A stretch of 16,140 nt of DNA from an uncultured Clostridia bacterium (GCA_937886445.1 CALGBY010000031.1:1-16140), one strand, 5' to 3'. Positions 1 to 16,140 are shown, numbered from the stretch's first letter. Translations and numbers: made by a program. The notes: generated by a model from the sequence alone, not told the origin.

Positions 1-158
1 TTGTTTTCTTGACTGTGCTTGTTTGCCTACCGCATTTTTAAATGAGATGACCCTGAGGCGGATTTGTATACCCCGGGATCTGCGCGGAACCGTGATAACG
101 CCTGTGAAACAGGAACGGGACCGGCGGACGGGCGCCTGAACGGCAAACCAAGTTATGG

Positions 159-187: not shown

Positions 188-250
188 ACCAGCAGTATAT
201 TGCTTTTATGCAGCAGGGATGCAGCGTTCGTGAAAGGAGATACAGCGGAT

Positions 251-2575
251 ATGTCAGTGGGTTTGATGTATTCAGTAGCCGTTTTTTTCTGCCTTCTGGT
301 CAATATGGTGATTACGGGCAGGGCGCTTTCATTGCGCCGGCGCGGCATGAAGGATGACCATCTGCTGATGCTGCTGCTTTTTTTTATCGGCTTTTGCGTT
401 ATTGATCTGATCTGGGGCCTGTTTTACGACAATTCCGGTGTGTTCTGCTCCCTTACCGGCCTCGTGCTGTCCTCCTATGCCTTTCACATCATGTCCGCTC
501 TTTCCGCCTGCGTATGGGGCGGGTATATGATACACTTTACAGGGGCAGACGGTAAAACGAAGCTCATATTGAACACCCTGCGTTACTGTCTGCTTGCTGC
601 GCAGATCATTTTGCTGATCTTCAATCTGCTCAGCGAAAATGTGTTCCGCGTTTTTGAAGTTCCTCAGGCTCCGGGAAGCTATGAATATGCAACGGGATCT
701 GCCAGACCGGTATTGTTCTGCCTTCAGATGAGCAATTATGTGATCCTGATGGCTTATTCACTGAGCCGCATTTACAAAAACAGCGAGCGCAGCCTGCACG
801 CCAAGGTGATCTTTTATTCTGTTATCCCGCTCATTTTCGGCTTTATGCAGCTGCTTCGCCTGAATGTATCGATGTACACCTTCGGCTTTACCCTCTCTTC
901 AGTCGCGATCTATATATTCTATGTGACAGATACGAGAGAACGCCAGCTCATCAGCGAAGCGGACAGACAGAGCCGGAAGAACAACGCGATCATACAAAGC
1001 ATATCAAATGATTATGAGGCGATCTATTATGTCGATACCGCGGCCGGTACTTTTGATATCCTGTACAGGATGGCGGACGGCAGCATAAAAAGCGTAAGCA
1101 GGAACGATGATTTCTTCGAATATGCACGGAGCGGCATCGCGAAAACTGTTTACGGCGAGGATCTTGAGAAGGCGGCCGGGATGCTGACACAGTCCCATAT
1201 CCGAAAAGAGCTTGCGGACAAGGATGCGTTTTCCTTCACCTGCCGGATCATGCTGCGCGGAGAACCGGTCTTCTGCGAAGTGCGCTGTGTGCGCTCCGCG
1301 CTTGAAGACCGGGGAGAGGAAAAGCTGATATTCGGTGTACGCAATATCAATGAAGCGGTCCGCGCCCAGACAGAGCAGAACAGGCTGCTTGAAAACGCGC
1401 TGGAGAGCGCCCGTTCGTCCGACCAGACCAAAACAAGCTTCCTCTTTAATATGAGCCATGATATCCGCACACCCATGAACGCGATCATCGGCTTTACCGG
1501 TCTTGCCAAGAAACATATCAATGACACGGAACGCGTGAAGGAATGCCTTGAAAAGGTGGAAAGCGCCGGCGACCAGCTGCTTTCACTGGTAAACGATGTA
1601 CTTGATATGTCCAGAATAGAATCCGGCAAGGTGATCATCAATGAAAAGCCTCTGTATATCAATAAATGCGTCGATGACCTGATCAGCGCGGTGGGAAACA
1701 GCGCGAGGGAAAAGAATATAGAACTGATCTGTGATACCTCAGACAGCTTTGCCCATCCGTGGATCTACGCGGATGAACTGCGATTGAACCGCGTTATGAT
1801 GAATATTCTGAACAACGCGATCAAGTTTACAAAGTCCGGCGGGAAGGTAGTGTACACCGTAAGTGAAAGCGCGTCGACCGAAAAAGGCAGGGTGCATTAC
1901 CGCTTTTGCGTAAACGATAACGGGATCGGCATGAGCAGGGAGTTCATGTCTCACCTGTACGAGGCGTTTTCCAGAGAACAGAATTCAGCCGTGAACGGTA
2001 TTCAAAGCACCGGCCTCGGCCTGACGATCACAAAGGAACTGGTAACGCTGATGAACGGCACGATCGATATTCAGAGCACGCTGGGAGTGGGTACCGATGT
2101 GACCGTGGATTTTGATTTCCGGATCGCGATGGAAGACGGGCCGAAAACACACGCGCATGCGGAGAACGATCTTGCCGTACTGAAGGGAAGGTACGCGCTG
2201 GTCGTTGAGGATAACCCGCTGAACCGTGATATCGCGCTGGATATTCTGGAAGACTACGGAGTAACGGCCGATACTGCTGAGGACGGGACAGCGGCGCTTC
2301 AGAAATATGCCGATATCCTTCGTACCGGTTCAAAAATGTATGATTTTATCCTGATGGATATTGAGATGCCTGTTATGAACGGCTACAAGGCCACCGCTGA
2401 GATACGAAACATGAGCGGCATCGGCGGAACACATGTGCCTGTTATCGCGATGACGGCCAATGCCTTCCGGGAGGACCGGCAGCGGGCACTGGAGGCCGGT
2501 ATGGACGCGTATATTGCAAAACCGATCAACCCCGAGTCGCTTGCCGCCATACTTGCCGGTCTGATCCGGAAATGA
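251..2575 (+). CDS. Hybrid sensor histidine kinase/response regulator: 7-TM N-terminal sensor, PAS-like region, HisKA, HATPase_c and a C-terminal REC domain
   Basis: About seven hydrophobic helices occupy the first ~250 aa. H-box is FNMSHDIRTPMNAIIGF (His codon 1457-1459). N-box is MNILNNAIKFT and the G-boxes are DNGIGM and GLGLTI. The receiver has LVVEDNPLNR, ILMDIEMPVMNG (Asp codon 2357-2359) and YIAKPI. I chose the start at 251 because of AGGAGA at 235-240 and the promoter at 159-187; the ORF track opens at 155. Confidence 0.9.
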   Translation: MSVGLMYSVAVFFCLLVNMVITGRALSLRRRGMKDDHLLMLLLFFIGFCVIDLIWGLFYDNSGVFCSLTGLVLSSYAFHIMSALSACVWGGYMIHFTGADGKTKLILNTLRYCLLAAQIILLIFNLLSENVFRVFEVPQAPGSYEYATGSARPVLFCLQMSNYVILMAYSLSRIYKNSERSLHAKVIFYSVIPLIFGFMQLLRLNVSMYTFGFTLSSVAIYIFYVTDTRERQLISEADRQSRKNNAIIQSISNDYEAIYYVDTAAGTFDILYRMADGSIKSVSRNDDFFEYARSGIAKTVYGEDLEKAAGMLTQSHIRKELADKDAFSFTCRIMLRGEPVFCEVRCVRSALEDRGEEKLIFGVRNINEAVRAQTEQNRLLENALESARSSDQTKTSFLFNMSHDIRTPMNAIIGFTGLAKKHINDTERVKECLEKVESAGDQLLSLVNDVLDMSRIESGKVIINEKPLYINKCVDDLISAVGNSAREKNIELICDTSDSFAHPWIYADELRLNRVMMNILNNAIKFTKSGGKVVYTVSESASTEKGRVHYRFCVNDNGIGMSREFMSHLYEAFSREQNSAVNGIQSTGLGLTITKELVTLMNGTIDIQSTLGVGTDVTVDFDFRIAMEDGPKTHAHAENDLAVLKGRYALVVEDNPLNRDIALDILEDYGVTADTAEDGTAALQKYADILRTGSKMYDFILMDIEMPVMNGYKATAEIRNMSGIGGTHVPVIAMTANAFREDRQRALEAGMDAYIAKPINPESLAAILAGLIRK

Positions 2576-2609
2576 TCGGGATATCCGAGTAGAGTGATCT
2601 CATATACGG

Positions 2610-2650
2610 AAAAGAGGATCTGCAGTTCAAAGGACCGCGGATCCTCTTTT
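2610..2650. terminator. Bidirectional rho-independent terminator between convergent genes
   Basis: AAAAGAGGATC (2610-2620) pairs with GATCCTCTTTT (2640-2650), and a few further GC pairs extend the stem. A-run and T-run flanks allow termination in both directions between the kinase (+) and the glycosyltransferase (-). Confidence 0.7.
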
Positions 2651-2697
2651 GAGATATGCCCTCGGGATGAAAATGTTATGCCCGAAAGATGAAAGAG

Positions 2698-3792
2698 TCA
2701 ATTTAACCCGGAAAGATAGATACTCTCAAGCTTTTTCGCGAATGTCTGTATCCCGAAGCCGGAGGTCTCCGCGATACCGGACAGATCCGAACGCTCCGGT
2801 GTTTCCCTGAGCGCCTCATCCGCCCATACCTGAGTGCTTTCTATAGAAAGACTGCGTACGAGGGGAGAAATGACCACATCCTTTGTGATCCTGTCGGATA
2901 TCAGGCAGGGCAGTCCGGCTGTCTGCGCTTCAATAAGGGAAAGCGGCGCTCCTTCCCAAAGAGAGGGAAACAGAAAACAGTCCGCCGCCTGCAAAAGCGC
3001 GTTCACATCGTTACGGCTGCCCAGCAGGCGCACATTTTTTCCGATGCCGAGAGCGCTGATCTTTTGGAGGATCGCTTTTTCCATCGAGCCGGAGCCCACG
3101 ATCAGAAGCACGCTGTTTTCCTGCTTTTTCAGTATGCCGGCAAAAACATCCAGCAGAAAAAGATGGTTTTTCGCTTCGTTCAGACGGCCGACATGGATAT
3201 ATACCTTTTTGCCCTCAAGCCCTTCCTGCGCCCTTGTGCTTTCGCGCAGCAGGGGATCAAAACGGAATACCTGCGTATCCACCGCGTTGCCCAGTATCAG
3301 GCATTTTCCGTTTTCTATGCTTTTTTTGCCGAAAAGCCATTCGCCCGCTTCTCTGGAGCACGCGATGCAGCGATCCGCCTGATAACGGAGCGGGTACTGC
3401 AGAAGCGTTTTGAACAGCGCTGAAAAGCCTTTGCCGTTGGAGGTACTGTGGCTGTGTACCAGCGTTTTTACACCGAAACGCTTCGCGATGGGCAGATATA
3501 CGGAGGCGTAGCTGCGGATGTGAGAGTGGAGAACGGTGATCTCCGGATGCTCGCGGAAAAAACGCTTCCACATGGAGCGGATCTTTATCACATTAAAGCC
3601 GCTGAAGCGCGGAAAATGGAATACTCTTCCGCCCATTGCGATGATCTCATCTTCGTGGGGCTGCTTTTCCGGAGTGTGCACGATAAAATCGAACTGCACC
3701 CTGCTTTTGTCGATCGCTTTATAGCAGTTGACGACCATGGTCTCCACACCGCCGGTCCTCAGACTGACTACTACCTGAGCTACCCTTACCAT
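2698..3792 (-). CDS. Glycosyltransferase family 4 (GT-B fold, Glycos_transf_1 type)
   Basis: The N-terminus VAQVVVSLRTGGVETMV is typical of GT4 enzymes. The C-terminal EX7E signature is present (FPSLWEGAPLSLIEAQTAGLPCLISD). I set the start at ATG 3792-3790, preceded by AGGAGG (complement of 3799-3804) with a 6-nt spacer. The ORF-track extension to 3855 overlaps the gene's own promoter. Confidence 0.85.
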   Translation of the reverse strand: MVRVAQVVVSLRTGGVETMVVNCYKAIDKSRVQFDFIVHTPEKQPHEDEIIAMGGRVFHFPRFSGFNVIKIRSMWKRFFREHPEITVLHSHIRSYASVYLPIAKRFGVKTLVHSHSTSNGKGFSALFKTLLQYPLRYQADRCIACSREAGEWLFGKKSIENGKCLILGNAVDTQVFRFDPLLRESTRAQEGLEGKKVYIHVGRLNEAKNHLFLLDVFAGILKKQENSVLLIVGSGSMEKAILQKISALGIGKNVRLLGSRNDVNALLQAADCFLFPSLWEGAPLSLIEAQTAGLPCLISDRITKDVVISPLVRSLSIESTQVWADEALRETPERSDLSGIAETSGFGIQTFAKKLESIYLSGLN

Positions 3793-3822
3793 TCGCGCCC
3801 TCCTTTCCGCATATTCCCGTAT

Positions 3823-3851
3823 ATCATAACGCAAGAGGAGCGCGTTATCAA
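3823..3851 (-). promoter_or_regulatory. Sigma-A-type promoter for the glycosyltransferase gene
   Basis: On the minus strand: TTGATA (complement of 3846-3851), a 17-nt spacer, then TATGAT (complement of 3823-3828). This sits about 30 nt upstream of ATG 3792. A 7-bp inverted repeat, ATAACGC/GCGTTAT (3826-3832 / 3842-3848), bridges the two hexamers. Confidence 0.55.
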
Positions 3852-3968
3852 GCAAAACCGAAACAAAATCACACCTTTTGGAATGAATTGCGGAACAGAA
3901 AAGGAAAATCGCGAAAAGCAGAAATTCGGATTTAACAGAATTGTAATCACTGAATAACGGTATATATG

Positions 3969-3977
3969 TGTTATAAT
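3969..3977 (+). promoter_or_regulatory. Candidate extended -10 promoter element for the MBL/comEC/holA/rsmG gene string
   Basis: TGTTATAAT (TGnTATAAT) lies in the AT-rich divergent intergenic region, about 80 nt upstream of ATG 4056. I could not find a convincing -35 at 17 nt. Confidence 0.3.
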
Positions 3978-4055
3978 TAAATTGTATATTTCTGTACTTC
4001 TCCGTTTACGGAGCGTCGGGAATGCCTGCAACGGAACCGAAAGGAAACAGAAAGA

Positions 4056-4856
4056 ATGAAACTGACTTTTTGCCCGCTCTTCAGCGGATCGAGCGGGAAC
4101 GCGCTTCTGGTATGCGGCGGAAACACCCGTTTGCTGATCGACTGCGGCATGACCGGAAAACAGATATGCGGCGCGCTTGAAAGTGTGGGTGCATCGCCTG
4201 ATACACTGGACGCGATCCTGATCACGCATGAACACAGCGATCATGTCAAAGGCGCCGGTGTGATGAGCCGCAAATATCATCTGCCGGTTTACGCGAACGA
4301 ACCCACATGGAATGCGATGGCGAAATGCGTTGGAGAGATCGGATACGATAATGTACGCTTTTTTGAAAGCGGAACGGATCTGCTTCTCGGAGATCTGTGC
4401 GTACATTCCTTCCAAACGCCTCATGACGCGGCGGAATCCGTTGGTTTCCGCGTCTCCTACGGAAACCGGAGCATCGCCGTGGCTACCGATATGGGTCATA
4501 TGCTGAAACGGGTGTTTGAGGAGATCCGCACAGCGGATCTTGTGCTGCTGGAAAGCAATCATGACCCGCGGATGCTGATGGAAAACCCTCATTATTCCTC
4601 CGCGCTCAAACGCCGCATTCTGGGCAATCAGGGGCATCTGTGCAATGAGGTGTGCGCCAAAACGCTGGTCAAGCTATGCGAATCCGGAGTAAAAAGGGCG
4701 ATCCTGGGTCATCTGAGCGGAGAAAACAATACGCCGCAGCTCGCAATGGATACCGCTCTTGAGATCCTGACAGACAGCGGGGCTGTGCCCGGGAGAGATA
4801 TCGCGGTGGATATGTCCTGGCGCGACAGGCCCGGCAATGTATATACGCTTGAATAG
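4056..4856 (+). CDS. MBL-fold metallo-hydrolase, YycJ/WalJ-like
   Basis: The metallo-beta-lactamase motif ITHEHSDHVKG is present. The N-terminus FSGSSGNALLV...LLIDCG and the LPVYANEPTWNAM segment resemble Bacillus YycJ as I recall it. A GAAAGGA ribosome binding site sits about 10 nt upstream. Confidence 0.85.
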   Translation: MKLTFCPLFSGSSGNALLVCGGNTRLLIDCGMTGKQICGALESVGASPDTLDAILITHEHSDHVKGAGVMSRKYHLPVYANEPTWNAMAKCVGEIGYDNVRFFESGTDLLLGDLCVHSFQTPHDAAESVGFRVSYGNRSIAVATDMGHMLKRVFEEIRTADLVLLESNHDPRMLMENPHYSSALKRRILGNQGHLCNEVCAKTLVKLCESGVKRAILGHLSGENNTPQLAMDTALEILTDSGAVPGRDIAVDMSWRDRPGNVYTLE

Positions 4857-4870
4857 GCAAAGGAGATCAT

Positions 4871-5578
4871 ATGAAAATCACGGTTTTGGGCTGCTACGGC
4901 CCCTATCCCGCGCCCGGAGAGGCAACGAGCGGTTATCTGATCGAATGCGCCGGAAAAAAGATCCTGCTGGACTGCGGCGCCGGTGTATGCGGAAAACTGA
5001 TGGAAAGGTGCTCTCCGGAGGAACTGGACTTGTTGGTCTTCTCTCATCTGCATTATGACCATATGAGCGACGCGAGTGTTCTGGGTTATTATTACCAGCT
5101 GCACGGCGGCGTACTGCCGGTTTGGCTGCCGGGTGAGGAACAGAGCGCGAGGAGAAGTATTCTGGATGTGCCGATGTTTTCTCTGAACGATATGAAGGAT
5201 GAATGGGAACTGGACGGCATCCGTTTCTTGACTGTTCCGGTATGCCATCCCGTGCCCTGCCGCGCCGTGAGGATCGAAGCGGACGGCAAGGTATTCGCTT
5301 TTACCGGTGACAGCAATATCTGCCCGCGGCTTGAGGATTTCTGCCGCGGGGCGGATGTGCTGTTTGCCGACAGCGCGTTCACCACAGCCCAGTGGGGAGA
5401 AGGCAAGCCGCATATGAGCGCTGCTCTCTGCGGAAAGCTGGCGGCTGCCGCCGGCGTGAAAAAGCTGTACCTGACGCATCTCAATCCCGGTAACGATACT
5501 GAACAGCTTGTCCGCGAGGCCGGGGAATACTTCCCGAATGTATCCTGCGTATATCCCGGTATGACCTGTCCGGTATGA
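4871..5578 (+). CDS. MBL-fold metallo-hydrolase (Lactamase_B_2 / YhfI-like)
   Basis: Motifs seen are MKITVLGCYGPYPAPGEATSGYLIE, LLDCGAG and the HxHxDH motif FSHLHYDHMSD. AGGAGA sits at 4861-4866. The stop overlaps the comEC ATG (ATGA at 5575-5578). Confidence 0.85.
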   Translation: MKITVLGCYGPYPAPGEATSGYLIECAGKKILLDCGAGVCGKLMERCSPEELDLLVFSHLHYDHMSDASVLGYYYQLHGGVLPVWLPGEEQSARRSILDVPMFSLNDMKDEWELDGIRFLTVPVCHPVPCRAVRIEADGKVFAFTGDSNICPRLEDFCRGADVLFADSAFTTAQWGEGKPHMSAALCGKLAAAAGVKKLYLTHLNPGNDTEQLVREAGEYFPNVSCVYPGMTCPV

Positions 5579-7878
5579 GCAGGTATACGGCGTTTTTTAC
5601 CGAAAGACCGCTGGTGGCTCTGAGCCTGTGCTACGGTATGGGTGTGCTGCTGGGCTTTCGAATGGAATGGATGCCTGTATGGGCCGCCGCGGGTCTGCTC
5701 TGCGGCGCGGCGGCTGCAGTTATCCTGTTTTTAATGAAGAAAAGCGCGCTTCCCGGCGTTTGCCTTTCGATACTTTTTCTGGGCATCCTGCTTGGCGGTG
5801 CCGCGGCGAACCCGTCCCTGCCTGCCGAGGGGCGCTGTACAGTGTACGGTACGGTGAGCGGTTCCGTCAGGACGGACGACAGCGGCAAGAACAAAGTCTA
5901 TCTTGAGGATGTTTTTTTGACCGATGAAAACGGTGTGAGTGTAAAGGCCGGGAAGGCCTATCTCACACTGGCACCCGACACGGAAGGCCTTGTTCTGGAG
6001 GACGGACAGGTCATCCGGACGGAAGGAAGGGTCTATTATCCGTCAGGGCGTGAAAACCCCTATGGCTTTGATTTCAGGGAGTACCTGCTCTCAAAGGGCT
6101 GCGGCTACGGGATCACCGTGACAGGAGACCCCGTTATCGCGCCGGAGCGGAAAACCGGTGTATCGGGCTTCTTTCTGCGCCTGAGAGAAACGATGGCGGA
6201 TAGAGGAAGGGAGATCTTCGGCAGCGAAAGCGCTTTGCCGCTCGCGCTGATCCTGGGGATCAGGGACGAGCTGCCCGATGAAACGCAAAGCTCCTTCTCA
6301 GACGCCGGTGTCGCGCATATTCTCGCGGTATCCGGTCTGCATGTATCTCTGCTGGCCGGTGTGCTGATGCTGCTGCTTCGCAAAATGCACCTTTCGCCGC
6401 TGGCGATCCTCTGTGTGACCGGTGTTTTTCTTCTGGTATACTGTGCGCTGATCGGCTTTTCGGCGCCGGTGGTGCGCGCGAGCGTGCTGACAATGATCGT
6501 GCTTTTTGCCCCGCTCGCGAAGCGGAGGACGGATCCGCTCACCTCACTTGCAGCGGCTTTTCTGATCCTCTTGCTTATCCGCCCGGCCGATCTTTTTACA
6601 CAAAGCTTCATCCTGTCCTTCAGCGCGGTGCTGGGCATCATCCTCTTTGGCGACCTTTTCAAAAGCTTTGTTCCGCGAAACAGGATACTGGCCAGGCTGT
6701 GGAGCTTCTGGCAGACGACATTCGCCGCCTCGTGCGGCGTTGCGCTTTCCTCTGTATGCTGTTTTCATTCTCTGTCGCTCATCGGCTTTGTGATCAATCC
6801 GTTTGTGTGTGCCTTTATCGGCATACTGCTGCCGGCGTATGCGGTGATCTTTGCCGTGGGCTGGGTCTGGCTTCCGGCCGGGCGTTTTCTGGGCACGCTG
6901 ATCGGCTTTGTTACACGGACATTTACAGAGGCGATCGACCTGATCAGCCGCGTTCCCGGCGCGGTGATAAATGTGCGCACGCCGCCGGTGCTGTGCATGA
7001 TCCTTCTCGTGGCTGGTATGATCCTGCTTACGCGTTATTCTGTCATTCGCAGGAAGATCCGTCTGCCTGCCGCCGGCGCGCTGATCCTATCATCTGTTCT
7101 GATATTCATTTTCAGCCGCGATACCGGTTTGCGATACATCCAGCTGTCCTCCGGGCAGGCGGATTGCGCGGTCATTACCGACGGAAATGAAACCGTGGTA
7201 CTGGATACGGGAGAAGACGGGGGAGACCTGAGCAGCTATCTGCTTTCATCGGGTCTGTCTGCCGATACCGTGGTGATCACACATTTCCATTCGGATCATA
7301 CCGGGGGAATAAAGAAACTGATCGAAAACGGGGTCCGTATCGGAAAGGTGTATTATGCCGCCGGTGCTCAGGAGCATGCCGATGACGGAAGCGCGGATTT
7401 TCTTGAATTACTTCGGGACGCGGGCATTCCCGTGCGGGAGATATCCAGAGGAGATGTGTTCTCAACGGAACGCGTACGTTTTTCGGTGCTCTGGCCGGAA
7501 AGAGGAAGGCAACAGCCCGGCGCGGACGCGAATGATTATTCTTTGGCAATGATGATCGACCTGGACGGAACGGAAATGCTTCATATGGGTGATCTGTCCG
7601 GGATCTATGAGCTTTACGCGGCAAACCCTGCCGATATTCTCAAGGTGGCACACCACGGAAGCGGATCCAGTACAGGCGAGGCGTTCCTGAGTACTGTTTC
7701 TCCCGAAACGGCACTTATCACTGCCGCTTCCTTCAGGACTAATCTTCCAAACGAGCGTACGCTTGAAAGGCTCAGAGCGGCAGGCGCGGTCATCTACCGT
7801 ACAGATGAGGACTGCGCGATCGAGATCCGTTTTGAGAACGGAAGCTATACCGTGAATACATATAAGAGGAAACGATGA
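5575..7878 (+). CDS. comEC: DNA internalization-related competence protein ComEC/Rec2
   Basis: It has an N-terminal TM segment plus an OB-like region (NPYGFDFREYLLSKG). The polytopic competence domain carries AGVAHILAVSGLHV. The C-terminal MBL domain carries VVITHFHSDHTGG and KVAHHGS. The downstream holA neighbour matches Bacillota synteny. Confidence 0.9.
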   Translation: MSRYTAFFTERPLVALSLCYGMGVLLGFRMEWMPVWAAAGLLCGAAAAVILFLMKKSALPGVCLSILFLGILLGGAAANPSLPAEGRCTVYGTVSGSVRTDDSGKNKVYLEDVFLTDENGVSVKAGKAYLTLAPDTEGLVLEDGQVIRTEGRVYYPSGRENPYGFDFREYLLSKGCGYGITVTGDPVIAPERKTGVSGFFLRLRETMADRGREIFGSESALPLALILGIRDELPDETQSSFSDAGVAHILAVSGLHVSLLAGVLMLLLRKMHLSPLAILCVTGVFLLVYCALIGFSAPVVRASVLTMIVLFAPLAKRRTDPLTSLAAAFLILLLIRPADLFTQSFILSFSAVLGIILFGDLFKSFVPRNRILARLWSFWQTTFAASCGVALSSVCCFHSLSLIGFVINPFVCAFIGILLPAYAVIFAVGWVWLPAGRFLGTLIGFVTRTFTEAIDLISRVPGAVINVRTPPVLCMILLVAGMILLTRYSVIRRKIRLPAAGALILSSVLIFIFSRDTGLRYIQLSSGQADCAVITDGNETVVLDTGEDGGDLSSYLLSSGLSADTVVITHFHSDHTGGIKKLIENGVRIGKVYYAAGAQEHADDGSADFLELLRDAGIPVREISRGDVFSTERVRFSVLWPERGRQQPGADANDYSLAMMIDLDGTEMLHMGDLSGIYELYAANPADILKVAHHGSGSSTGEAFLSTVSPETALITAASFRTNLPNERTLERLRAAGAVIYRTDEDCAIEIRFENGSYTVNTYKRKR

Positions 7879-8909
7879 ATCACACTCAGTTTTTTGCCGC
7901 CTGCAGCGCCGGACAGATCCGGAATGTATACCTTTTTGAAGGTGAGGAGGAGCTTACCAAGGCGTCTGCGCTGGATGCGCTGCGAAACGCGTGTCTGAAG
8001 GATACCGAGCTTCCCGAAATGAATGAGACCGTGCTGACGGACCCGGACGCGGATACCCTGATCGCGGCATGTGAGACACTGCCTTTTCTTTCGGAGAGAA
8101 GGCTGGTCACCGTGCGGGAATGCGCCATGCTGATACCGAACGGAAAAACCAAAGAATATGACGCGGATGATGCGGCGGAACGCCTGAAGGAATATCTGCC
8201 CGGAATATCGCAGACGACCTGTCTGGTTTTCTATGTGCGCGGTAAAGCGGACAGCAGAAGAAAGCTGTACGGCGCGGTAAAAAAGCGCGGAGAGACTGTT
8301 CAGTTTGACACACTGGATGAGAATGAGCTGGCCAAATGGATCATCAAGCGTTTCCGGCTTCACGGAAAAAATGCGGATGCGTCGGCTGCTCAGGCACTGT
8401 GGTTTACAAGCGGAAAGGATCTGACACTGCTCAGCAATGAGATCGATAAGATCTGCGCGTACGCGGGCGATCAGGATACGGTGACGGAGACCGAGATCGC
8501 GGCGGTGGCCACACAGACGACTGAGTATAAGGTGTTCGATCTTGCGGATACCCTGCTGAGCGGGAACGGGAAAAAAGCGTTTTCCCTTTTGAGAATGCTG
8601 GAGCGGGACGGAGAACAAAGCGTATACCTGCTCAGCCTGCTCGGAAGACAATGCCGTCAGATGCTGTATGTGAGGGACTGCAGAGATCCCTACACCGCGG
8701 CACGGCGTCTGGGGATCCCGTCCGGCGCGGCTTCAGCACTGATGCGTATGGGCAAAGCGTACAGCGCGGAACAAACGGAGCAGATCTGCCGTCTGTGTAC
8801 GGAAACGGAATACAGGATCAAAAGCGGTGAGCTGAATGAGAGCGGGGCGCTTGAAAATGTGATGCTGCGTATTCTGGCAATGTTCAGAAAACAGGACAAC
8901 AGTGATTGA
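7875..8909 (+). CDS. holA: DNA polymerase III subunit delta
   Basis: The N-terminal VYLFEGEEELTK-type motif, the length (344 aa) and the helical C-terminal region fit HolA. It lies directly downstream of comEC with an ATGA start/stop overlap (7875-7878), as in Bacillus. Confidence 0.85.
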   Translation: MNHTQFFAACSAGQIRNVYLFEGEEELTKASALDALRNACLKDTELPEMNETVLTDPDADTLIAACETLPFLSERRLVTVRECAMLIPNGKTKEYDADDAAERLKEYLPGISQTTCLVFYVRGKADSRRKLYGAVKKRGETVQFDTLDENELAKWIIKRFRLHGKNADASAAQALWFTSGKDLTLLSNEIDKICAYAGDQDTVTETEIAAVATQTTEYKVFDLADTLLSGNGKKAFSLLRMLERDGEQSVYLLSLLGRQCRQMLYVRDCRDPYTAARRLGIPSGAASALMRMGKAYSAEQTEQICRLCTETEYRIKSGELNESGALENVMLRILAMFRKQDNSD

Positions 8910-8926
8910 TACGGGAGAAGAACGGA

Positions 8927-9622
8927 ATGAAGGAAACACTCATGCGTCTCGGTATGTGCTATGAGGATCGCGTGTATGAAGATCTTGAGCGGTACATGAA
9001 GATGCTTGATGAAAAGAACCGCGTGATGGATCTGACAAATGTGCCGCTTGAGGAGATGCCGCTCAGGCATTTCGCGGATTCGCTGATGCCCTTCTGCCGG
9101 GGATTGATCCCGGCCTCGGGCAGCCTTGCCGATGTGGGGACGGGAGCCGGTTTTCCGGGTCTTCCCGCGGCCATCGTGTACCGTGATATGAAGGTGACGC
9201 TGATAGACGCGCAGCGGAAGCGGTGCGATTTTCTTGAAGAGGTGAAGGCGGAGCTTGAACTGGATAACGTAACGGTGCTGCATTTGCGCGCGGAGGATGC
9301 CGGGAAGAATGCCGCCCTGCGGGAGCAGTTCGATACGGTATGTGCGCGGGCCGTTGCCCCCCTGAATGTGCTTGCGGAATATCTGCTTCCGCTTGTACGC
9401 GTGGGCGGAAGGGCGGTCTGCTGGAAGGGGCCGGGTGTTAAGGACGAAGAGGAAAGCGGAAGAAAAGCGGCACTGATGCTCGGCGCCGGCGGGCTGACGG
9501 TTGAGGATATGCGGGTGGAAGATATGGCACACTGTGCCGTTGTGATGAAAAAGACAGACAAAACGCCCGGCCGTTATCCCAGAAAAAGCGGAATGCCGTC
9601 CAAAATGCCGCTTGGCGTGTAA
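8927..9622 (+). CDS. rsmG: 16S rRNA (guanine527-N7)-methyltransferase RsmG (GidB)
   Basis: The SAM-binding motif DVGTGAGFPGLPAAIV is present, and RKRCDFLEEV...LELDNVTVLHLRAED is typical of RsmG. I chose ATG 8927, preceded by GGGAGA. The ORF-track start at 8906 is a TTG that overlaps the holA stop, so the start remains uncertain. Confidence 0.88.
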   Translation: MKETLMRLGMCYEDRVYEDLERYMKMLDEKNRVMDLTNVPLEEMPLRHFADSLMPFCRGLIPASGSLADVGTGAGFPGLPAAIVYRDMKVTLIDAQRKRCDFLEEVKAELELDNVTVLHLRAEDAGKNAALREQFDTVCARAVAPLNVLAEYLLPLVRVGGRAVCWKGPGVKDEEESGRKAALMLGAGGLTVEDMRVEDMAHCAVVMKKTDKTPGRYPRKSGMPSKMPLGV

Positions 9623-9665
9623 GCCGGGCTGATTTGAGCGATATATTAATATTGCTAATAGAATG

Positions 9666-9694
9666 TTGAAATATCCGGAATGATTGTATATAAT
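9666..9694 (+). promoter_or_regulatory. Near-consensus sigma-A promoter for the DUF3783/CE4/EAL/HAD cluster
   Basis: TTGAAA (9666-9671), an exact 17-nt spacer, then TATAAT (9689-9694), in an AT-rich intergenic region about 75 nt upstream of ATG 9769. Confidence 0.6.
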
Positions 9695-9768
9695 AGCGGT
9701 ACAGGCTTACAGAATAATGTACCGATCAAATATCCTGATTGAAATACCGGACACGGAAAGGGATTTGT

Positions 9769-10158
9769 ATGAAGCAGCCGGCTGTACTGTGCTTCTGCAC
9801 AGACGCGGAAGAAGAGAAAAAAATACGCGCGTGTGCCGTGATGAACAGGATCCTGTTCAGAAAAGCGGATGCGGATATGAAAGCAAAACCATTGGGCGCC
9901 CTGTTCACTCTGCCGGAGAGCGGAAGCGTTGAAGGTGAAGGAAGCGAACTGCCTGACCGTATGCTGGTGATGGCGTTCTTTACCCCTGATCTGATGAACC
10001 GCTTTCTCGGCACTCTGAAAACGCGCGGCGCGGCTTCCGGCTGGGTAAAGGCGGTACTTACCGCGACCAACGCGATGTGGACACCGGATAAGCTGAAGAC
10101 GGAACTGGACAGGGAAAAGGCTGCGCTTGAAAACGGACAAAAGGCCGTGCACGGCTGA
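9769..10158 (+). CDS. Small DUF3783-like protein of unknown function
   Basis: The C-terminal segment LVMAFFTPDLMNRFLGTLKTRG...VKAVLTATNAMWTPDKLKTELDRE matches the DUF3783 signature as I remember it (KAVxTxxNxxWT...L..EL). The start is ATG 9769, after GGAAAGGGA. The ORF-track start at 9739 has no ribosome binding site. Confidence 0.6.
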   Translation: MKQPAVLCFCTDAEEEKKIRACAVMNRILFRKADADMKAKPLGALFTLPESGSVEGEGSELPDRMLVMAFFTPDLMNRFLGTLKTRGAASGWVKAVLTATNAMWTPDKLKTELDREKAALENGQKAVHG

Positions 10159-10180
10159 CCGGGGTAAGGAGGATCGAGAT

Positions 10181-10819
10181 ATGGACACTGAAAAACTGAT
10201 CGCGCTCAGCTTTGATGACGGGCCGAACCTGACAACTACGCTGCAGGTTCTGGATGTGCTTGAGAAAAACGATGTAAAGGCTTCTTTCTTTCTGATCGGC
10301 AACAAGATCACAGATGAAACAAAAAAAGTGATGATGAAAGAACTTGAGCAGGGGCATGAGATCTGCTGCCATTCAACCGCTCACCGTGTGATGAGCGAAA
10401 TGACCTTTGATGAGATCAAAGAGGACATCAGCGCCTGCACGGCGAAGATCGCGGCGGTGACCGGAAAGGAACCCGCGTTTTTCCGTCCGCCGTATATTGC
10501 CGTCAATGAAACGCTTCTGAAGGCCGTTTCCATGACCTTTATTTCCGGGATCGGCTGTGAAGACTGGGTGCCTGCTGTATCCGCTTCCGAACGCGCCCGA
10601 AGGATCATGGAAAACGCCGAGGATGGCCAGATCGTGCTGCTGCATGATTTTGAAGGCAATGATAATACGGTGGAAGCGCTGAAGACTGTGATACCGGAGC
10701 TGAAGAAAAGAGGATACCGTTTTGTGATGGTATCAGAATTGTTCCGCCTTAAGAAGATCGTACCTGCAGGGATGACTGTTTACAGCAATGTGCTTCAGAA
10801 CACTAGGGTGTGTTTCTAA
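10181..10819 (+). CDS. Polysaccharide deacetylase (NodB homology domain, carbohydrate esterase family 4)
   Basis: All five CE4 motifs are present in order: SFDDGP, HSTAH, FRPPY, GCEDW and LLHD. No signal peptide or TM segment is visible. The start is ATG 10181, after TAAGGAGG (10164-10171). Confidence 0.85.
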   Translation: MDTEKLIALSFDDGPNLTTTLQVLDVLEKNDVKASFFLIGNKITDETKKVMMKELEQGHEICCHSTAHRVMSEMTFDEIKEDISACTAKIAAVTGKEPAFFRPPYIAVNETLLKAVSMTFISGIGCEDWVPAVSASERARRIMENAEDGQIVLLHDFEGNDNTVEALKTVIPELKKRGYRFVMVSELFRLKKIVPAGMTVYSNVLQNTRVCF

Positions 10820-10967
10820 ATTCAAAACGATGCATTTTCAGCATCTTTTCCATCATTTCTGCGTTGTCGAACCTCGATTTACCTCCAGTAAACCTTCGGT
10901 TCTTCGCCTTGAACTGACGGAAAATCTGCTTGAAACTGCACATTCCTCATTTTAGAGACACACCCTA
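10804..10967. repeat. Long imperfect palindrome with 17-bp terminal inverted repeats (MITE-like element or large structured intercistronic hairpin)
   Basis: TAGGGTGTGTTTCTAAA (10804-10820) is the reverse complement of TTTAGAGACACACCCTA (10951-10967) at 16 of 17 positions. Further complementary blocks run inward to an apical stem, TTTAC/GTAAA (10878-10882 / 10888-10892), with loop CTCCA. CAC flanks both ends. Confidence 0.6.
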
Positions 10968-11003
10968 CACACTGAGACGATAAATGACTGAAAGGATAAC
11001 GCC

Positions 11004-14000
11004 ATGCTCTCAGACCGTAAGATTATTGCTCTTTGCCTGAACTGCTTTCAGGATGCCAACCATGCGCCCTTCGTGAACGCGCTCCATAAGGCGGCGATGA
11101 AACACGGCTGGCGTGTAATGGTATTTGCCTCATTTTCAAAGAACATCGCGCCCGGGACAAAAAACACGCCTTCCGTGTTTGATCTGATCAATTTCAAAAC
11201 GGCGGACGCGCTTGTGGTCTCCTATGGCGGAAGGCAGCCGGATGAGGGCTTGAAGCAGGCGATCGTCCGGGCGAAGGAGGCCGGAAAGCCAACAGTCATC
11301 ATAGGGACGAACTGGGATAATGAAGACGCGGTGTCCCTGACGGCAGATCATACCGAAGCCTTCCGCTCGCTGATCATCCATCTGATACAAAAGCATCAGA
11401 TCGGCAGCGCCGTGCTGATGAACGGAAGCCGGGAGGGAGACAGCCACAGCAGGATGTGCGAGCGCGTTTTCCGTGAGGTGATGGCGGAGCACGGGCTTCC
11501 GGGGGACAGCCGCAGCTGTCTGTATACCGAATACCGCGACAGTGCCGTTTACGAAGCAGCGGAGAAACTGGCGGCATCCGGCAAATTGCCCGGTGCTGTG
11601 ATCTGCGCTGATGATCGCATCGCACGCGCTGTGTGCAGGGCGTTTTCCAATCTGGGCGTTCGTGTTCCGGAGGATGTTATTGTGACCGGCATTGAGAATG
11701 AGCCGGGAGATGAATATTTTGTTCCGTCTATTGCTGCATGTCGGACGGACGCGGAACAGGCAGCCGCTATGTGCATGGAACTGCTGGAAGAAAAAACGGT
11801 GACCGGCAGCGCGGGAAAAAGACTGAAAAGCAGCTTTTTCCCGGATACCTCCTGCTGCGGAACAGAGCATAACAGTGTTTCGGCGGAACAGATGCGCAGC
11901 CTGATAAGCGGGATGACCCGCCATGAAGAGCATATGTATTCCTGGATGGAGGAGCTTTCCTGCGCAGAGGATTGGAGCGGCCTGTATTCCGCGTTGTCCC
12001 AGATCATTTCACGTTTTTCGGTGCTTTGCCTGAACAGCTCCGTTTCTGATGTGATCGAAGGCAAAAAACGGGATGAAGCAGACCGTAAGGAATACACTGT
12101 GATCCGTTCTTCAAGAAGCAATAATGACAAACTGTCGGTGTCCAGACAGACGATCGACAGTATCATACCGGACGCGGAGGCCTGGGCAGCCGGAGATAGG
12201 CTGTGCGTGGTCACCCAGATCACCGCCGGTGATATGGTATGCGGGCGCTATGTGCTGTCCATGGACGAGATGAACAGCGAAAAGTATAAGATACGCCGGG
12301 TAACGCGTACGCTGAGCACCGTACTGGGAATGCTTTTGAACAGAGGAAGCGACGGACGGAGAGCGGAAAATGACGCGGAGAACGGGTTTTCCGTCAGAGC
12401 ATCGGGCTTGCCCGGGCTGGAGGGTGCTGTACGCTGGTTTGAGGCTTTTTCCGCTCTTCAGGAAAACCATCGCCTTCAGATCACCGCTACGGTATACAGC
12501 CTGCCGAAATACAGTTATATTTATGAAAACTACGGCATTTTCGACACCGAGGAAACCGTGCAGATGATATCTGAAGCGCTGAGAAGAAACGCGTCCGGCA
12601 AGCGCGGACTGACAGCGCAGATCAGTCAGAATGAATTTTTGCAGATCTTCTGCCTGCACGAGGATGTGAACGCGGCGGATGAAGCGGCCGCGGCGATCAA
12701 AAATGTATATAAAGCAGTGGAGAAATTTAACGCGGAGGCCGGTAAGGACTATCAGGTAGAAGTCAACAGCGGTTATACGACAGCCGCTCCCGGCTGGCAG
12801 GGAACGCTGGAGACCTTTGTCAAGCTTGCTTCCGGTGAAATGTATAAAAACCGTATGCTTCACGGGCAGGAACAGGGCGGACACACTGAGCATGCAACGC
12901 TGGAAATGTACAGCATGTTCAATTATCTTGTGGATAACAATCTGTTCACTTTCTGCTTCCAGCCGATCGTTGACGCGAAGACCGGATCGGTATACGGCTA
13001 TGAGGCGCTGATGCGCACATCCGGCGGGGTGAAAATGTCTCCGCTGGATGTACTTGAGACCGCGCGTGATTATCATCGCCTCTATGACATCGAAAAGATC
13101 ACACTGTTCAGTATCGTTGAGCGCTATGAAAGGGAGTTTGACAGCTTCCGCGGCAGAAAGCTGTTTATCAATACGATCCCCGGCAATTTCCTGAATGAGA
13201 CGGACAGCATGCTTCTTAAGGATAAATACCGTACCCTGCTGGATCATTTTGTATTTGAGATCACTGAGCAGGATACCATTTCGGATGAAGAACTCGGAAA
13301 GATCAAGTCTGTTTCCTGCGATGGTCAAAACGGCCAGGTGGCTGTAGACGATTACGGAACAGGCCATTCCAATATCGCAAACCTTTTGCGCTACGCGCCG
13401 CAGATCATCAAGATCGACCGTTTTCTGATCAGCGGTATACAGAATGACCTGAATAAACAGATGTTTGTTCAGAATACCATTGAGTTTGCACGCCTGAACG
13501 GGATCAAGGTACTGGCTGAGGGCGTTGAAACCTTTGAAGAACTGCAAAAGGTCATCGAATGCGGCGTGGACCTGATCCAGGGCTACTATACGGCCAAGCC
13601 TGCTCCTTTCCCGCTTCAGAACCTGCCGGCGAAGATCAAAAACGAGATCATCGCGGAAAATCTGCGTATATCTCGCTTTGACAATGATCTGCTTGTTTAT
13701 AACGCCTCAAGCGGGGAAAAGATCGATATCATCGATCTGGCGTACAAGAAATATGCCTATGTCAATGTGGCTGAGGGCGAAGTGACCTTTACCGGAGAAA
13801 AGGACAATACGGTCGATCTGGTGATCCGTGTAGCGGAACAGACGGATGCGTGCCTGATCTTTGATAATGTGAATATCAAGGGAAGTGTTGAAACAACAGT
13901 CCAGATCGGCCGCGGCAGCCGCGTGGAGATCGTGCTGTACGGAGAGAACACGCTGAATAAGGAAGGAATCCATGTTCCCGAAACGGCATCTCTTTTGCTG

Positions 14001-14888
14001 CGCGGTGACGGCAGCCTGACGATAAACGGCAACCGCAATTTCGCGGTGGGCATCGGATCAAACTACAGTGAGCCTCACGGTGAGATCGATATCGATATCA
14101 ACGGAAAGCTCAGCGTGATCTCATCCGGTGATAAAGTGGTAAGCATCGGCGGCGGAAGAGAGCGTTCCGCGCAGATCCTGCTTTCACACGGAACGGTATG
14201 TGTAGATGCCAAGGGGATCGATGTGCTGGGCATCGGCAGCGTGGATGACTGCGCGACTGTGAGGATCATCGACGCGGATGTGCGCGTACACTGCTCCGGC
14301 AATAACGCTGTGGGGATCGGGTCAGTCAAGGGAAGCGTGGATATTGAGACCTGCGGGAACGTGTATACGCTTTCGGACGGTGAAAAAGCGGTCGGTATCG
14401 GCACCTGTACAGGCACCGGCGGCCGTGTGAAGCTGATACGCGGCAATGTTACGGCTGTCACTCACTGCGACATCGGTACGGGGATCGGTTCCGTAAGCGG
14501 AAGTGTATCGGTGGAAAACATCGGAGCCTGTACCGACTGCTACGGCGAGGGAACGAGAGTAAGGAGCTTCGGCAGTGTGACCGGCAGATGTGTGACCCGT
14601 ATCACCGGCGGATGCGTCCGCGCGCGCGTACAGGCCGCGGAGGAGCTGCCCTTCGGCGGAGAGGCGGACAGCGTTGTGATCACCGGCGGAAATGTGGTAA
14701 GCGATTCTCCCGTTCCGGTGGCTGTGAACGATTTCGGAGAGCCGCTTATCAGATACAGCCCGAAGGGACACCGGTTTGAGAAGAACGTCGTATGCGGAAA
14801 CGGCGAATATGTCTACACGGCGGTAAGAGATGAAAACACAGGTGAATTATCTGTTTATCTTCCTCATTCCGCCGTTTGCGGGGAATAA
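11004..14888 (+). CDS. Multidomain c-di-GMP phosphodiesterase: LacI-type sugar-binding (PBP1) fold, unassigned region, degenerate GGDEF, EAL and a C-terminal Gly-rich beta-solenoid-like repeat domain
   Basis: The PBP1-like region (aa ~5-265) contains VICADDRIARAVCRAFSNLGVRVPEDVIVTGIEN. The degenerate GGDEF (aa ~465-622) has SQNEF in place of GGDEF. The EAL domain (aa ~633-870) has FQPIVD, GYEALMR, FINTIPGN, FEITE, VDDYGTGHSN, IKIDR, LAEGVET and IQGYY. The region aa ~895-1294 carries six GIG-type repeats. The ribosome binding site GAAAGGA is 7 nt upstream. I see no TM segment or signal peptide. Confidence 0.9.
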   Translation: MLSDRKIIALCLNCFQDANHAPFVNALHKAAMKHGWRVMVFASFSKNIAPGTKNTPSVFDLINFKTADALVVSYGGRQPDEGLKQAIVRAKEAGKPTVIIGTNWDNEDAVSLTADHTEAFRSLIIHLIQKHQIGSAVLMNGSREGDSHSRMCERVFREVMAEHGLPGDSRSCLYTEYRDSAVYEAAEKLAASGKLPGAVICADDRIARAVCRAFSNLGVRVPEDVIVTGIENEPGDEYFVPSIAACRTDAEQAAAMCMELLEEKTVTGSAGKRLKSSFFPDTSCCGTEHNSVSAEQMRSLISGMTRHEEHMYSWMEELSCAEDWSGLYSALSQIISRFSVLCLNSSVSDVIEGKKRDEADRKEYTVIRSSRSNNDKLSVSRQTIDSIIPDAEAWAAGDRLCVVTQITAGDMVCGRYVLSMDEMNSEKYKIRRVTRTLSTVLGMLLNRGSDGRRAENDAENGFSVRASGLPGLEGAVRWFEAFSALQENHRLQITATVYSLPKYSYIYENYGIFDTEETVQMISEALRRNASGKRGLTAQISQNEFLQIFCLHEDVNAADEAAAAIKNVYKAVEKFNAEAGKDYQVEVNSGYTTAAPGWQGTLETFVKLASGEMYKNRMLHGQEQGGHTEHATLEMYSMFNYLVDNNLFTFCFQPIVDAKTGSVYGYEALMRTSGGVKMSPLDVLETARDYHRLYDIEKITLFSIVERYEREFDSFRGRKLFINTIPGNFLNETDSMLLKDKYRTLLDHFVFEITEQDTISDEELGKIKSVSCDGQNGQVAVDDYGTGHSNIANLLRYAPQIIKIDRFLISGIQNDLNKQMFVQNTIEFARLNGIKVLAEGVETFEELQKVIECGVDLIQGYYTAKPAPFPLQNLPAKIKNEIIAENLRISRFDNDLLVYNASSGEKIDIIDLAYKKYAYVNVAEGEVTFTGEKDNTVDLVIRVAEQTDACLIFDNVNIKGSVETTVQIGRGSRVEIVLYGENTLNKEGIHVPETASLLLRGDGSLTINGNRNFAVGIGSNYSEPHGEIDIDINGKLSVISSGDKVVSIGGGRERSAQILLSHGTVCVDAKGIDVLGIGSVDDCATVRIIDADVRVHCSGNNAVGIGSVKGSVDIETCGNVYTLSDGEKAVGIGTCTGTGGRVKLIRGNVTAVTHCDIGTGIGSVSGSVSVENIGACTDCYGEGTRVRSFGSVTGRCVTRITGGCVRARVQAAEELPFGGEADSVVITGGNVVSDSPVPVAVNDFGEPLIRYSPKGHRFEKNVVCGNGEYVYTAVRDENTGELSVYLPHSAVCGE

Positions 14889-15610
14889 TGAAGAAATATA
14901 CAGCAGCTGTGTTCGACCTTTACGGCACGCTTACCGATGTTTTGACAGACGAGGAAGGGGAGGAGACCTGGGACCGTTTTTCCGCATATCTTACGGAAAA
15001 CGGTATGCCCTATACCTCTTCAGAAGCAAAACGCGTGTTTACAGCGGCAGAAAACGCTTTGAAGCGTAAGCCGTCCTGTTACCGGTATCCGGAGTATGAT
15101 ATCCTGCCTGCCTTCGAGGCATTATGCCGAGCCAAAAAGCCGGACGCGGGCAGAGATGTTGCGCGGGCGGCAGGTGAATGCTTCAGAAGATGCGCTTTGC
15201 GCCGGCTTGAGTTGTATCCGCATACGCTTCAGGTCCTCAATGCGCTGAAGAAGCGGGGGATCCGTCTGTATATGCTTACAAACGCACAGGCTGTCTATAC
15301 GAAACAGGAGATAGAAACACTCGGTCTGTATGATTATTTCGATGCGGTGTATATCTCATCCGAACGCGGATGCATGAAGCCGGACGCCGCGTTCTTTGAT
15401 GCCCTGCTTTCTGAGCAGGGGCTGAAGCCGGAAGAAACGCTGATGATCGGGAACGACGCGTTTTCGGATGCAGGTGTTGCCCTGGCGGCTGGAACGGATT
15501 GCGCGTTTCTGAATACAGGCGGCAGTACGGGAATAATGCTGGAATGCCGGTTTGTATACCCGGACGGGGATATCATTCATGTTCTTGAAGCATTTTCTGA
15601 AAATGAATAG
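14888..15610 (+). CDS. HAD-superfamily hydrolase, subfamily IA, with a 2-haloacid-dehalogenase-like DxYGT motif I
   Basis: Motif I is AAVFDLYGTL, motif II is YMLTNA, the motif III Lys is in CMKPD, and motif IV is IGNDAFSD. ATG 14888 shares its A with the upstream TAA stop (TAATG). The ORF-track start at 14876 lies inside the upstream gene. Confidence 0.85.
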   Translation: MKKYTAAVFDLYGTLTDVLTDEEGEETWDRFSAYLTENGMPYTSSEAKRVFTAAENALKRKPSCYRYPEYDILPAFEALCRAKKPDAGRDVARAAGECFRRCALRRLELYPHTLQVLNALKKRGIRLYMLTNAQAVYTKQEIETLGLYDYFDAVYISSERGCMKPDAAFFDALLSEQGLKPEETLMIGNDAFSDAGVALAAGTDCAFLNTGGSTGIMLECRFVYPDGDIIHVLEAFSENE

Positions 15611-15612
15611 AA

Positions 15613-15645
15613 AAAAGAGCAGATACCGTAAAGGCCTGCTCTTTT
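15613..15645. terminator. Bidirectional rho-independent terminator
   Basis: AAAAGAGCAG (15613-15622) pairs with CTGCTCTTTT (15636-15645) around a 13-nt loop. It sits between the convergent HAD gene (+) and the rpiB-like gene (-), with A and T runs on either side. Confidence 0.7.
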
Positions 15646-15666
15646 AAATATAATAACTGCCGGGTG

Positions 15667-16140
15667 TTACTCAAGGCTTTCGCCGTTTTCGATCAAAGTG
15701 AACATATCGATCCTTCTTTGATGCCTTCCGCCTTCAAACGGGGTGTCGAGGAAGGTTTCGGTGAGCAGCATGGCGGTTTCGGGAGCGATCACTCTGCCGC
15801 CCATTGCCAGCATATTGGCATCATTGTGCGCGCGGGTCATCTTCGCGCTGTAGGCGTCGGAGCAGCAGCAGCAGCGGATGCCTTTCATTTTGTTTGCGGC
15901 AATGGAGATACCGACACCCGTACCGCACATGATGATACCGTATTTGTATTCACCGCTCTGTACGGCTTTTGCCGCGCGGCACGCGTATACGGGATAATCA
16001 CGGCAGGTATCGTTTTCGGAGATCCCGAAATAGGTATACCCGATACCGCGTTCTTCAAGCACCTTTATCACAGCATCTTTCAGTACAACGCCGGCAGGAT
16101 CGGCTGCGACGGCAACCTTGAAGGAACCTTCTTTATCCAT
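15667..16140 (-). CDS. rpiB: RpiB/LacA/LacB-family sugar-phosphate isomerase (ribose-5-phosphate isomerase B-like)
   Basis: Motifs seen are IMCGTGVGISIAANKMKGIR, AHNDANMLAMGGRVI and FEGGRHQRRI. The ATG falls exactly at the window edge (16140), so the upstream region and the true start cannot be checked. Confidence 0.8.
   Translation of the reverse strand: MDKEGSFKVAVAADPAGVVLKDAVIKVLEERGIGYTYFGISENDTCRDYPVYACRAAKAVQSGEYKYGIIMCGTGVGISIAANKMKGIRCCCCSDAYSAKMTRAHNDANMLAMGGRVIAPETAMLLTETFLDTPFEGGRHQRRIDMFTLIENGESLE

Follow-up and report, generated by a model that had tools for sequence, protein, structure and literature searches.

An EAL-coupled beta-solenoid domain in a predicted cytoplasmic c-di-GMP phosphodiesterase from Clostridia

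The stretch of DNA analysed here (the window; 16,140 nucleotides, CALGBY010000031.1:1-16140 of GCA_937886445.1, from an uncultured Clostridia bacterium) carries a gene for a putative five-module phosphodiesterase of cyclic diguanylate (c-di-GMP). A LacI-type periplasmic-binding-protein (PBP) type 1 fold (PBP1) is followed by a middle region (MID), a degenerate GGDEF domain, an EAL domain and a large C-terminal domain (CTD). c-di-GMP enzymes usually read as an N-terminal sensor with the catalytic output behind it, and it is uncommon for a further domain to follow EAL. The standard part of this protein is the catalytic logic of a phosphodiesterase with degenerate GGDEF, EAL and a cytoplasmic sensor; the new part is the CTD, which represents an EAL-specific family of beta-solenoid domains that is absent from Pfam and NCBIfam and without a solved structural relative.

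The open reading frame (ORF) comprises 1294 codons and a TAA stop in one unbroken frame (11004-14888, + strand; Table 1), and M1 of the homologues aligns with its start. An exact-match look-up of the protein sequence gave no record. A protein of the same length and 99% identity (P0001) is encoded in an independent assembly (contig L015), followed by the same downstream gene, so the ORF is not an assembly chimera. The preceding gene is closed by a terminator-like hairpin at 10829-10845. The stop codon of the ORF overlaps the start of a gene for a generic HAD-IA hydrolase, and the TAATG junction indicates that the two are probably co-translated; the pairing is present in contig L015 and absent from the other, distant homologue loci. 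An Rfam scan of the window (1-16140) returned no family at gathering score and thus no c-di-GMP riboswitch 5' of the phosphodiesterase gene.

Table 1 Features of the phosphodiesterase gene and its immediate surroundings, numbered from the first letter of the window
Feature	Position	Strand	Remark
Ribosome-binding site AAAGGA	10991..10996	+	7 nt 5' of ATG, read from the sequence
Whole ORF	11004..14888	+	1294 aa; predicted soluble PBP1-MID-degenerate GGDEF-EAL-CTD protein
LacI-type PBP type 1 effector-binding fold, no helix-turn-helix	11004..11858	+	aa 1-285; Pfam and NCBIfam profiles
MID, conserved in the family	11859..12398	+	aa 286-465; begins at the family ESCGC motif
Degenerate GGDEF domain	12399..12878	+	aa 466-625; signature SQNEF
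EAL domain, catalytic set complete	12909..13613	+	aa 636-870
Linker helix between EAL and CTD	13629..13673	+	aa 876-890; helix in the AlphaFold2 model, residues 247-261 of the model
C-terminal beta-solenoid domain (CTD)	13674..14885	+	aa 891-1294; AlphaFold2 all-beta model
CTD N-terminal cap and most conserved block	13692..14033	+	conservation; hhalign against P0338
Eight solenoid coils, 27-31 aa each	14034..14675	+	Gly ladder, motif chain
C-terminal beta extension of ~70 aa	14676..14885	+	only in relatives of the PBP class and the class with two transmembrane helices (alignment A1)
HAD-IA hydrolase gene	14888..15610	+	ATG overlaps the TAA of the ORF (TAATG, 14886-14890)

The N-terminal domain was assigned with Pfam-A (2025 copy) and NCBIfam (release 20). 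In Pfam, Peripla_BP_3 (E 8e-19, 68.7 bits) and Peripla_BP_1 (E 6e-10, 39.4 bits) both score above their cut-offs over aa 23-265, and Peripla_BP_4 also matches this region (E 7e-6). The NCBIfam models of CcpA, RbsR, LacI and PurR align with residues 6-292, starting from model position ~62-73: position 62 of RbsR pairs with residue 6, and position 73 of LacI with residue 17. Since the LacI-family profiles align only past the helix-turn-helix (HTH) and the protein begins at the first PBP strand, the 60-aa DNA-binding head is absent. An E-S-C-G-C motif (TSCCG here) marks the PBP/MID junction across the family (window 11847-11861, aa 282-286; alignments A1 and A5) and might serve for metal binding or redox chemistry. 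The MID that follows is conserved in at least 13 representative homologues. Neither Pfam (E<=10) nor a PDB profile search matched it, and hhalign found no correspondence with a GAF-containing protein; an alpha/beta pattern resembling GAF or PAS domains is an impression gained from the sequence alone.

The GGDEF domain matches its Pfam model weakly (26 bits, aa 489-617), and the D-x-L-T-G-L motif on its N-terminal side is eroded as well. In the motif alignment the signature is degenerate family-wide, reading [SAG]-x-[DNS]-[EQ]-F. With the GG[DE]EF signature lost, synthesis of c-di-GMP by this domain is not expected. The EAL domain, on the other hand, scores 153 bits against a Pfam cut-off of 31.3 (aa 643-866). 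E667, R671, N723, E752, E755, D782, D783, K803, E839, E842 and Q859 are all present; with the loop-6 DDYGTG motif they make up the full metal-binding and catalytic set of an active-type EAL. These catalytic residues are 99-100% conserved in an alignment of the query and 111 EAL-CTD representatives. From the intact EAL domain the protein is predicted to be a c-di-GMP phosphodiesterase. The initial annotation, made from the sequence of the window by itself, had already described the single 1294-codon ORF, the PBP type 1 fold lacking the LacI HTH, a middle stretch that it could not assign, the degenerate GGDEF and the EAL with its complete set of motifs, and all of these descriptions hold, as do the coordinates given there.

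The CTD is rich in glycine (13.8%) and valine (13.1%). Eight [IVLF]G[STGA] motifs are chained at a spacing of 26-32 aa, whereas the longest chain found in 20,000 composition-preserving shuffles was six, and this only once. The coils conform to the consensus G-x2-a-V-G-I-G-S-x2-G-x-a-x-I-x-I-x2-G-x-V-x-a, which suggests three short strands per solenoid turn. One glycine per coil is conserved among the query and the 111 representatives: G1018, G1049, G1078, G1106 and G1133 in 100%, G1190 in 99% and G1162 in 92% of the sequences. Hydrophobic core positions are conserved too, and so is a block at aa 980-1005, G-E-N-x-L-x3-G-I-x-V-P-x4-L-x3-G-x-G-x-L (G980, N982, G988, P992, L997, G1001, G1003 and L1005). 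Among polar residues just Y899, Y917, N982 and N1242 are conserved; the other conserved positions are glycine or hydrophobic, which speaks against a catalytic role and against a fixed pocket for a small ligand. Of 112 CTDs, 109 are acidic (median net charge -13), and this argues against binding of nucleic acids or nucleotides. Outside the EAL domain, conservation is highest in the linker helix (E881 73%, I882 93%) and in the first CTD block. In keeping with the class-limited C-terminal extension (Table 1), coverage is 98-100% in relatives of 750-780 aa versus 70-80% in the class of ~700 aa.

AlphaFold2, run on the CTD alone with family alignments, returned an all-beta model with a predicted local distance difference test score (pLDDT) of 93.8 and a predicted TM-score (pTM) of 0.91; for EAL and CTD together the values were 90.0 and 0.80. 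As modelled, the CTD would be an ordered beta-solenoid and not a disordered region, in line with the initial annotation. The "about 400 aa of glycine-rich repeats" described there are real as a region and are better stated as solenoid coils of 27-31 aa. The CTD of the query had no Pfam match at E<=10, NCBIfam matches were confined to the PBP, GGDEF and EAL regions, and a search of 28 CTD members against Pfam at E<=1 revealed no recurrent family, only one marginal match to Bactofilin (E 0.005). A sequence-profile search of the PDB gave noise (a fimbrial subunit, E 0.005; arginase, E about 1). Foldseek with the CTD found nothing in the PDB at E<=1e-3; the weak matches were nearly all right-handed beta-helices (E >= 0.03, TM-score <= 0.36, root-mean-square deviation 9-16 A), and the same fold class came up in the BFVD viral library (best E 4e-4, TM-score 0.29). 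The model of EAL plus CTD retrieved EAL matches only, the best being solved EAL phosphodiesterases (E ~1e-11).

The CTD profile also picked up two secreted proteins with AGIGGG repeats and PF18889 (Beta_helix_3). One, P0257 (163 bits), is 1198 aa long, resembles a lipoprotein and comprises some six modules; the other, P0338, has a signal peptide and 599 aa. An hhalign comparison of the CTD alignment with P0338 gave a probability of 97% and an E value of 1e-10 over 100 columns, corresponding to query aa ~929-1032, that is, the cap and the conserved block. The shared block reads L-x-G-x-N-x-l...G-I-x-V-P-x4-L-t-I-x-G-d-G-x-L...G-I-G-g. The PF18889 profile itself did not match the query. We regard the remote homology between the first third of the CTD and the secreted AGIGGG-repeat modules, as read from these alignments, as genuine. 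The likeness to AGIGGG-type surface proteins noted in the initial annotation would therefore be real but confined to this third, and the likeness to PF14262/Cthe_2159 suggested alongside it found no match, either with the query CTD at E<=10 or with the 28 members at E<=1. In fibrillar-adhesin-like proteins PF18889 is classed as a stalk domain, for which no ligand is known (PMC8286594). P0257 and P0338 are themselves built from tandem AGIGGG-repeat modules of ~190 aa, in which Pfam recognises just the 20-aa Beta_helix_3 repeat; this module family is seemingly under-covered in Pfam.

How widespread the CTD is became apparent from an exhaustive HMMER search of 1.84 billion representative proteins with a four-sequence CTD profile. 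It matched 492 clusters (50% identity) at E<=1e-3, 203 of them at E<=1e-30, and the query-type protein P0001 scored top (462 bits). The best 150 clusters were typed by phmmer with the query's own domains. EAL-CTD was the most frequent arrangement (82), followed by PBP-EAL-CTD (19), PBP-MID-GGDEF-EAL-CTD (13), PBP-GGDEF-EAL-CTD (9) and other combinations of GGDEF or MID with EAL-CTD (7). Another 19 were classed as CTD only, all of them <=415 aa except the secreted P0257, and one 240-aa fragment (P0240) matched no query domain. Thus, in 130 of these 150 representatives an EAL domain lies ~30 aa ahead of the CTD, and about 45 have a PBP...EAL-CTD layout. One of the CTD-only entries, P0099, might pass for a free-standing domain; in reality a full-length PBP-MID-GGDEF-EAL-CTD gene is split there by scaffold Ns, and P0099 is what its 3' portion encodes (L014, 2-3309).

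According to a Pfam scan, the EAL-CTD class is heterogeneous at its N-termini, which are of a type with two transmembrane (TM) helices (2-TM), of a 5-7-TM-GGDEF type, or short and helical in proteins of ~690-720 aa. The coupling of CTD and EAL persists across PBP, 2-TM, 5-7-TM-GGDEF and sensor-less N-termini, and the CTD is therefore an EAL-coupled module regardless of sensor type. In the full-size proteins examined it strictly follows an active-type EAL, save for a few remote relatives that are secreted; in a second search, covering 5.8 billion proteins, all matches of >=500 aa carry PF00563 except one secreted outgroup. The query shows the features by which we propose to define the EAL-CTD family: the G-x-N-x-L...G-I-x-V-P block, the glycine ladder and a position directly C-terminal to an intact EAL. 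The genome matches come from Clostridia of the rumen and gut (Oscillospiraceae, Lachnospiraceae and Ruminococcus), and the family spans hundreds of protein clusters from such bacteria, including the cultured cellulolytic Ruminococcus flavefaciens FD-1. The source names given are "EAL domain-containing protein" only (Ruminiclostridium, Ruminococcus, Eubacterium), and full-text literature searches on EAL with beta-helix or solenoid, on c-di-GMP enzymes of Ruminococcus or Clostridia and on Peripla_BP fusions turned up no account of the CTD. The five-module architecture is recurrent, not singular. It had initially been put forward as one not recognised as described; this stands as far as functional annotation is concerned, but the architecture is widespread.

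Four observations point to a location inside the cell. The highest Kyte-Doolittle mean over 19 residues is 1.19, compared with roughly 1.6-1.8 expected for a TM helix, and the N-terminus is not signal-like but leads directly into the first PBP strand; the initial annotation had correctly seen neither a hydrophobic stretch of about 20 residues nor a signal peptide. Of the 67 relatives that measure 700-800 aa, 52 possess a pair of TM helices joined by a loop of 10-15 aa without charge, and their N-terminus is rich in K/R; an N-in/C-in topology follows, with EAL and CTD in the cytoplasm. The substrate of EAL, c-di-GMP, is intracellular. The CTD is rich in cysteine, with 13 residues here and a family median of 8.5. 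Taken together, the missing signal peptide and TM helix, the topology of the 2-TM relatives, the intracellular substrate and the cysteine richness place the CTD inside the cell, and the prediction that the whole protein is soluble and cytoplasmic is supported.

Within the window the neighbours of the ORF include genes for a polysaccharide deacetylase, a GT4 glycosyltransferase and RpiB. Further upstream, comEC (5575-7878), holA (7875-8909) and a gene for an rsmG/GidB-type methyltransferase (8906-9622) overlap successively by 4 nt and look like one operon; directly 5' of comEC lie two tandem genes with a metallo-beta-lactamase fold (4056-4856 and 4871-5578). Between rsmG and the deacetylase gene, no + strand gene was assigned at 9623-10126; a minus-strand ORF of 218 aa (9655-10311), without a match in Pfam, overlaps the start of the deacetylase gene. 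At the beginning of the window (155-2575) a hybrid histidine kinase/response regulator is encoded (HisKA, HATPase_c, Response_reg), the first ~420 aa of which have no Pfam match. Elsewhere, an ECF-type sigma factor is encoded 3' of the EAL-CTD gene in three loci, L013 (9195-13348), L009 (2433-2939) and L005 (8956-9462). In L013 the sigma factor is followed by a PASTA-domain protein and then by HAAS and DUF4097 (toastrack) proteins. This arrangement is not found in the R. flavefaciens FD-1 locus (L008).

What could such an enzyme do? We favour, with slightly more confidence than doubt, a soluble cytoplasmic c-di-GMP phosphodiesterase that is controlled by its PBP1 domain and uses the CTD as a docking or oligomerisation platform. 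A small cytoplasmic metabolite would bind in the PBP1 cleft, most likely a sugar, sugar phosphate or nucleoside, as in LacI, CcpA, RbsR and PurR. Closure of the hinge would be relayed via MID and the degenerate GGDEF, which may still serve as an allosteric GTP site as in PdeA of Caulobacter, and the relay would set the activity with which EAL hydrolyses c-di-GMP to pGpG. The CTD would then be a family-specific, non-catalytic appendage of EAL, a rigid acidic beta-helix of the same stock as the secreted AGIGGG stalks but used intracellularly. It may fix EAL as a dimer of defined arrangement or anchor it to a partner and thereby keep signalling local; this last step, the weakest, is one we infer only. 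Several observations weigh against this picture. The NCBIfam scores for CcpA, RbsR, LacI, PurR and GalR are all far under their cut-offs, so the ligand of the PBP domain is not transferable from any of the named regulators. The signalling path is assumed, for it leads through MID, which has no domain assignment. An all-versus-all BLAST of the ORFs at 13 homologue loci found only the EAL-CTD gene itself in common and so suggests no partner. Finally, in the EAL-CTD proteins of ~700 aa the CTD is the sole candidate for a regulatory module, and a sensory or autoregulatory role fits at least as well as that of a passive scaffold. Seen across the family, it is tempting to speculate that the CTD is an unnamed EAL-specific adaptor, a stalk-type beta-helix recruited to the cytoplasm of Clostridia that tethers or oligomerises active phosphodiesterases or serves as the regulatory input of EALs lacking a sensor; we offer this tentatively and regard it as doubtful.

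The autoregulatory role deserves a closer look. The CTD might pack at the active site or dimer interface of EAL and gate hydrolysis in response to a cytoplasmic signal, as a second input beside the PBP. It is favoured by the many members of ~690-720 aa in which EAL and CTD are accompanied by just a short helical N-terminus and by no further sensor domain, and by the conservation of the linker helix and of the CTD's first block; the pTM of the two-domain model likewise suggests a defined mutual orientation. Against it, the CTD has no conserved polar pocket residues, nor was a known ligand-binding fold found by Foldseek, PDB profile or Pfam. We consider this role rather unlikely. Less probable still is a second carbohydrate- or glycan-recognition module, by which the enzyme would integrate sugar and glycan status, as the initial annotation proposed. 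The idea draws on the polysaccharide-active beta-helices among the weak fold matches (alginate epimerase/lyase, P22 tailspike, AlgG), on the remote homology to secreted AGIGGG-repeat modules and on the deacetylase, glycosyltransferase and RpiB genes in the window. Yet neither PF14262 nor any other Pfam beta-helix model matched, the Foldseek hits in the PDB are all above 1e-3 with TM-scores that do not exceed 0.36, the gene neighbourhood is not conserved, and no ligand is known for the secreted relatives, PF18889 being listed just as a "stalk" domain (PMC8286594). A cytoplasmic CTD lacking the conserved aromatic and acidic surface residues typical of glycan sites does not fit this role either. 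The CTD accompanies EAL whatever N-terminal module is present, with no preference for sugar sensors, and is thus an accessory of EAL rather than a further sugar sensor.

A cytoplasmic beta-solenoid with regular coils also brings to mind the bactofilins, and a polymer-forming, cytoskeletal CTD could assemble the phosphodiesterase into filaments or polar patches. One of 28 members did give the marginal Bactofilin match, but it did not recur, and the distinct non-repeat regions at both ends of the domain, which we read as caps, would hinder end-to-end stacking. The coil length of 27-31 aa is presumably not bactofilin-like either, and altogether we find polymer formation very unlikely. The least probable of all, to the point of being hardly tenable, is an enzymatic CTD, of pectate-lyase, epimerase or glycosidase type, or an exported protein whose CTD acts outside the cell. 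Nothing points in this direction beyond the general kind of fold seen in the weak Foldseek matches and the fact that some remote homologues are secreted; a conserved constellation of Asp, Glu, Lys, Arg or His is lacking, as are signal peptide and TM helix, the topology of the 2-TM relatives puts the CTD inside, and both the intracellular substrate of EAL and the many cysteines of the CTD speak against export.

The CTD is worth a domain definition, although it does not make a categorically new system. Naming it would improve the annotation of many entries called "EAL domain-containing protein", and its characterisation would possibly show how Gram-positive anaerobes localise or regulate the degradation of c-di-GMP. 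It would also illustrate cleanly how a beta-helix module of surface type can be put to use intracellularly. The PBP1 sensor, in turn, suggests a direct link from a cytoplasmic metabolite to c-di-GMP turnover in fibre-degrading bacteria.

Several known systems resemble parts of the protein. The weak structural matches of the CTD suggest the general fold class of the pectate-lyase-like right-handed parallel beta-helices (AlgG, the alginate epimerase/lyase 8jaz, P22 tailspike); unlike these, it has no catalytic residues and is placed in the cytoplasm. The proteins with AGIGGG repeats and PF18889 differ in having signal peptides, tandem modules and no EAL, and only ~100 of the 400 CTD residues align with them. 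Cthe_2159/PF14262, also a beta-helix of Clostridia, is not among the top 50 Foldseek matches of the CTD. At the other end of the protein, aa 6-292 have, by Pfam and NCBIfam profile match, the two-lobe PBP type 1 fold of the LacI/GalR regulators (CcpA, RbsR, LacI, PurR), but there is no HTH or hinge helix here and the output is an enzyme instead of DNA binding. An accessory domain placed after EAL, not before it, is presumably also found in YkuI of Bacillus subtilis, which we take to be an EAL protein with a C-terminal PAS-like domain; here the accessory domain is a large beta-solenoid with no relative in the PDB by sequence or structure. The closest parallel for the catalytic half may be PdeA (CC3396) of Caulobacter crescentus, which we take to be a phosphodiesterase with a degenerate, allosteric GGDEF in front of EAL. 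As in PdeA, a GGDEF without GG[DE]EF stands in tandem with a complete EAL, and net phosphodiesterase activity would be expected; unlike in PdeA, a cytoplasmic LacI-type PBP and MID stand in front of the tandem and a beta-solenoid of 400 aa behind it.

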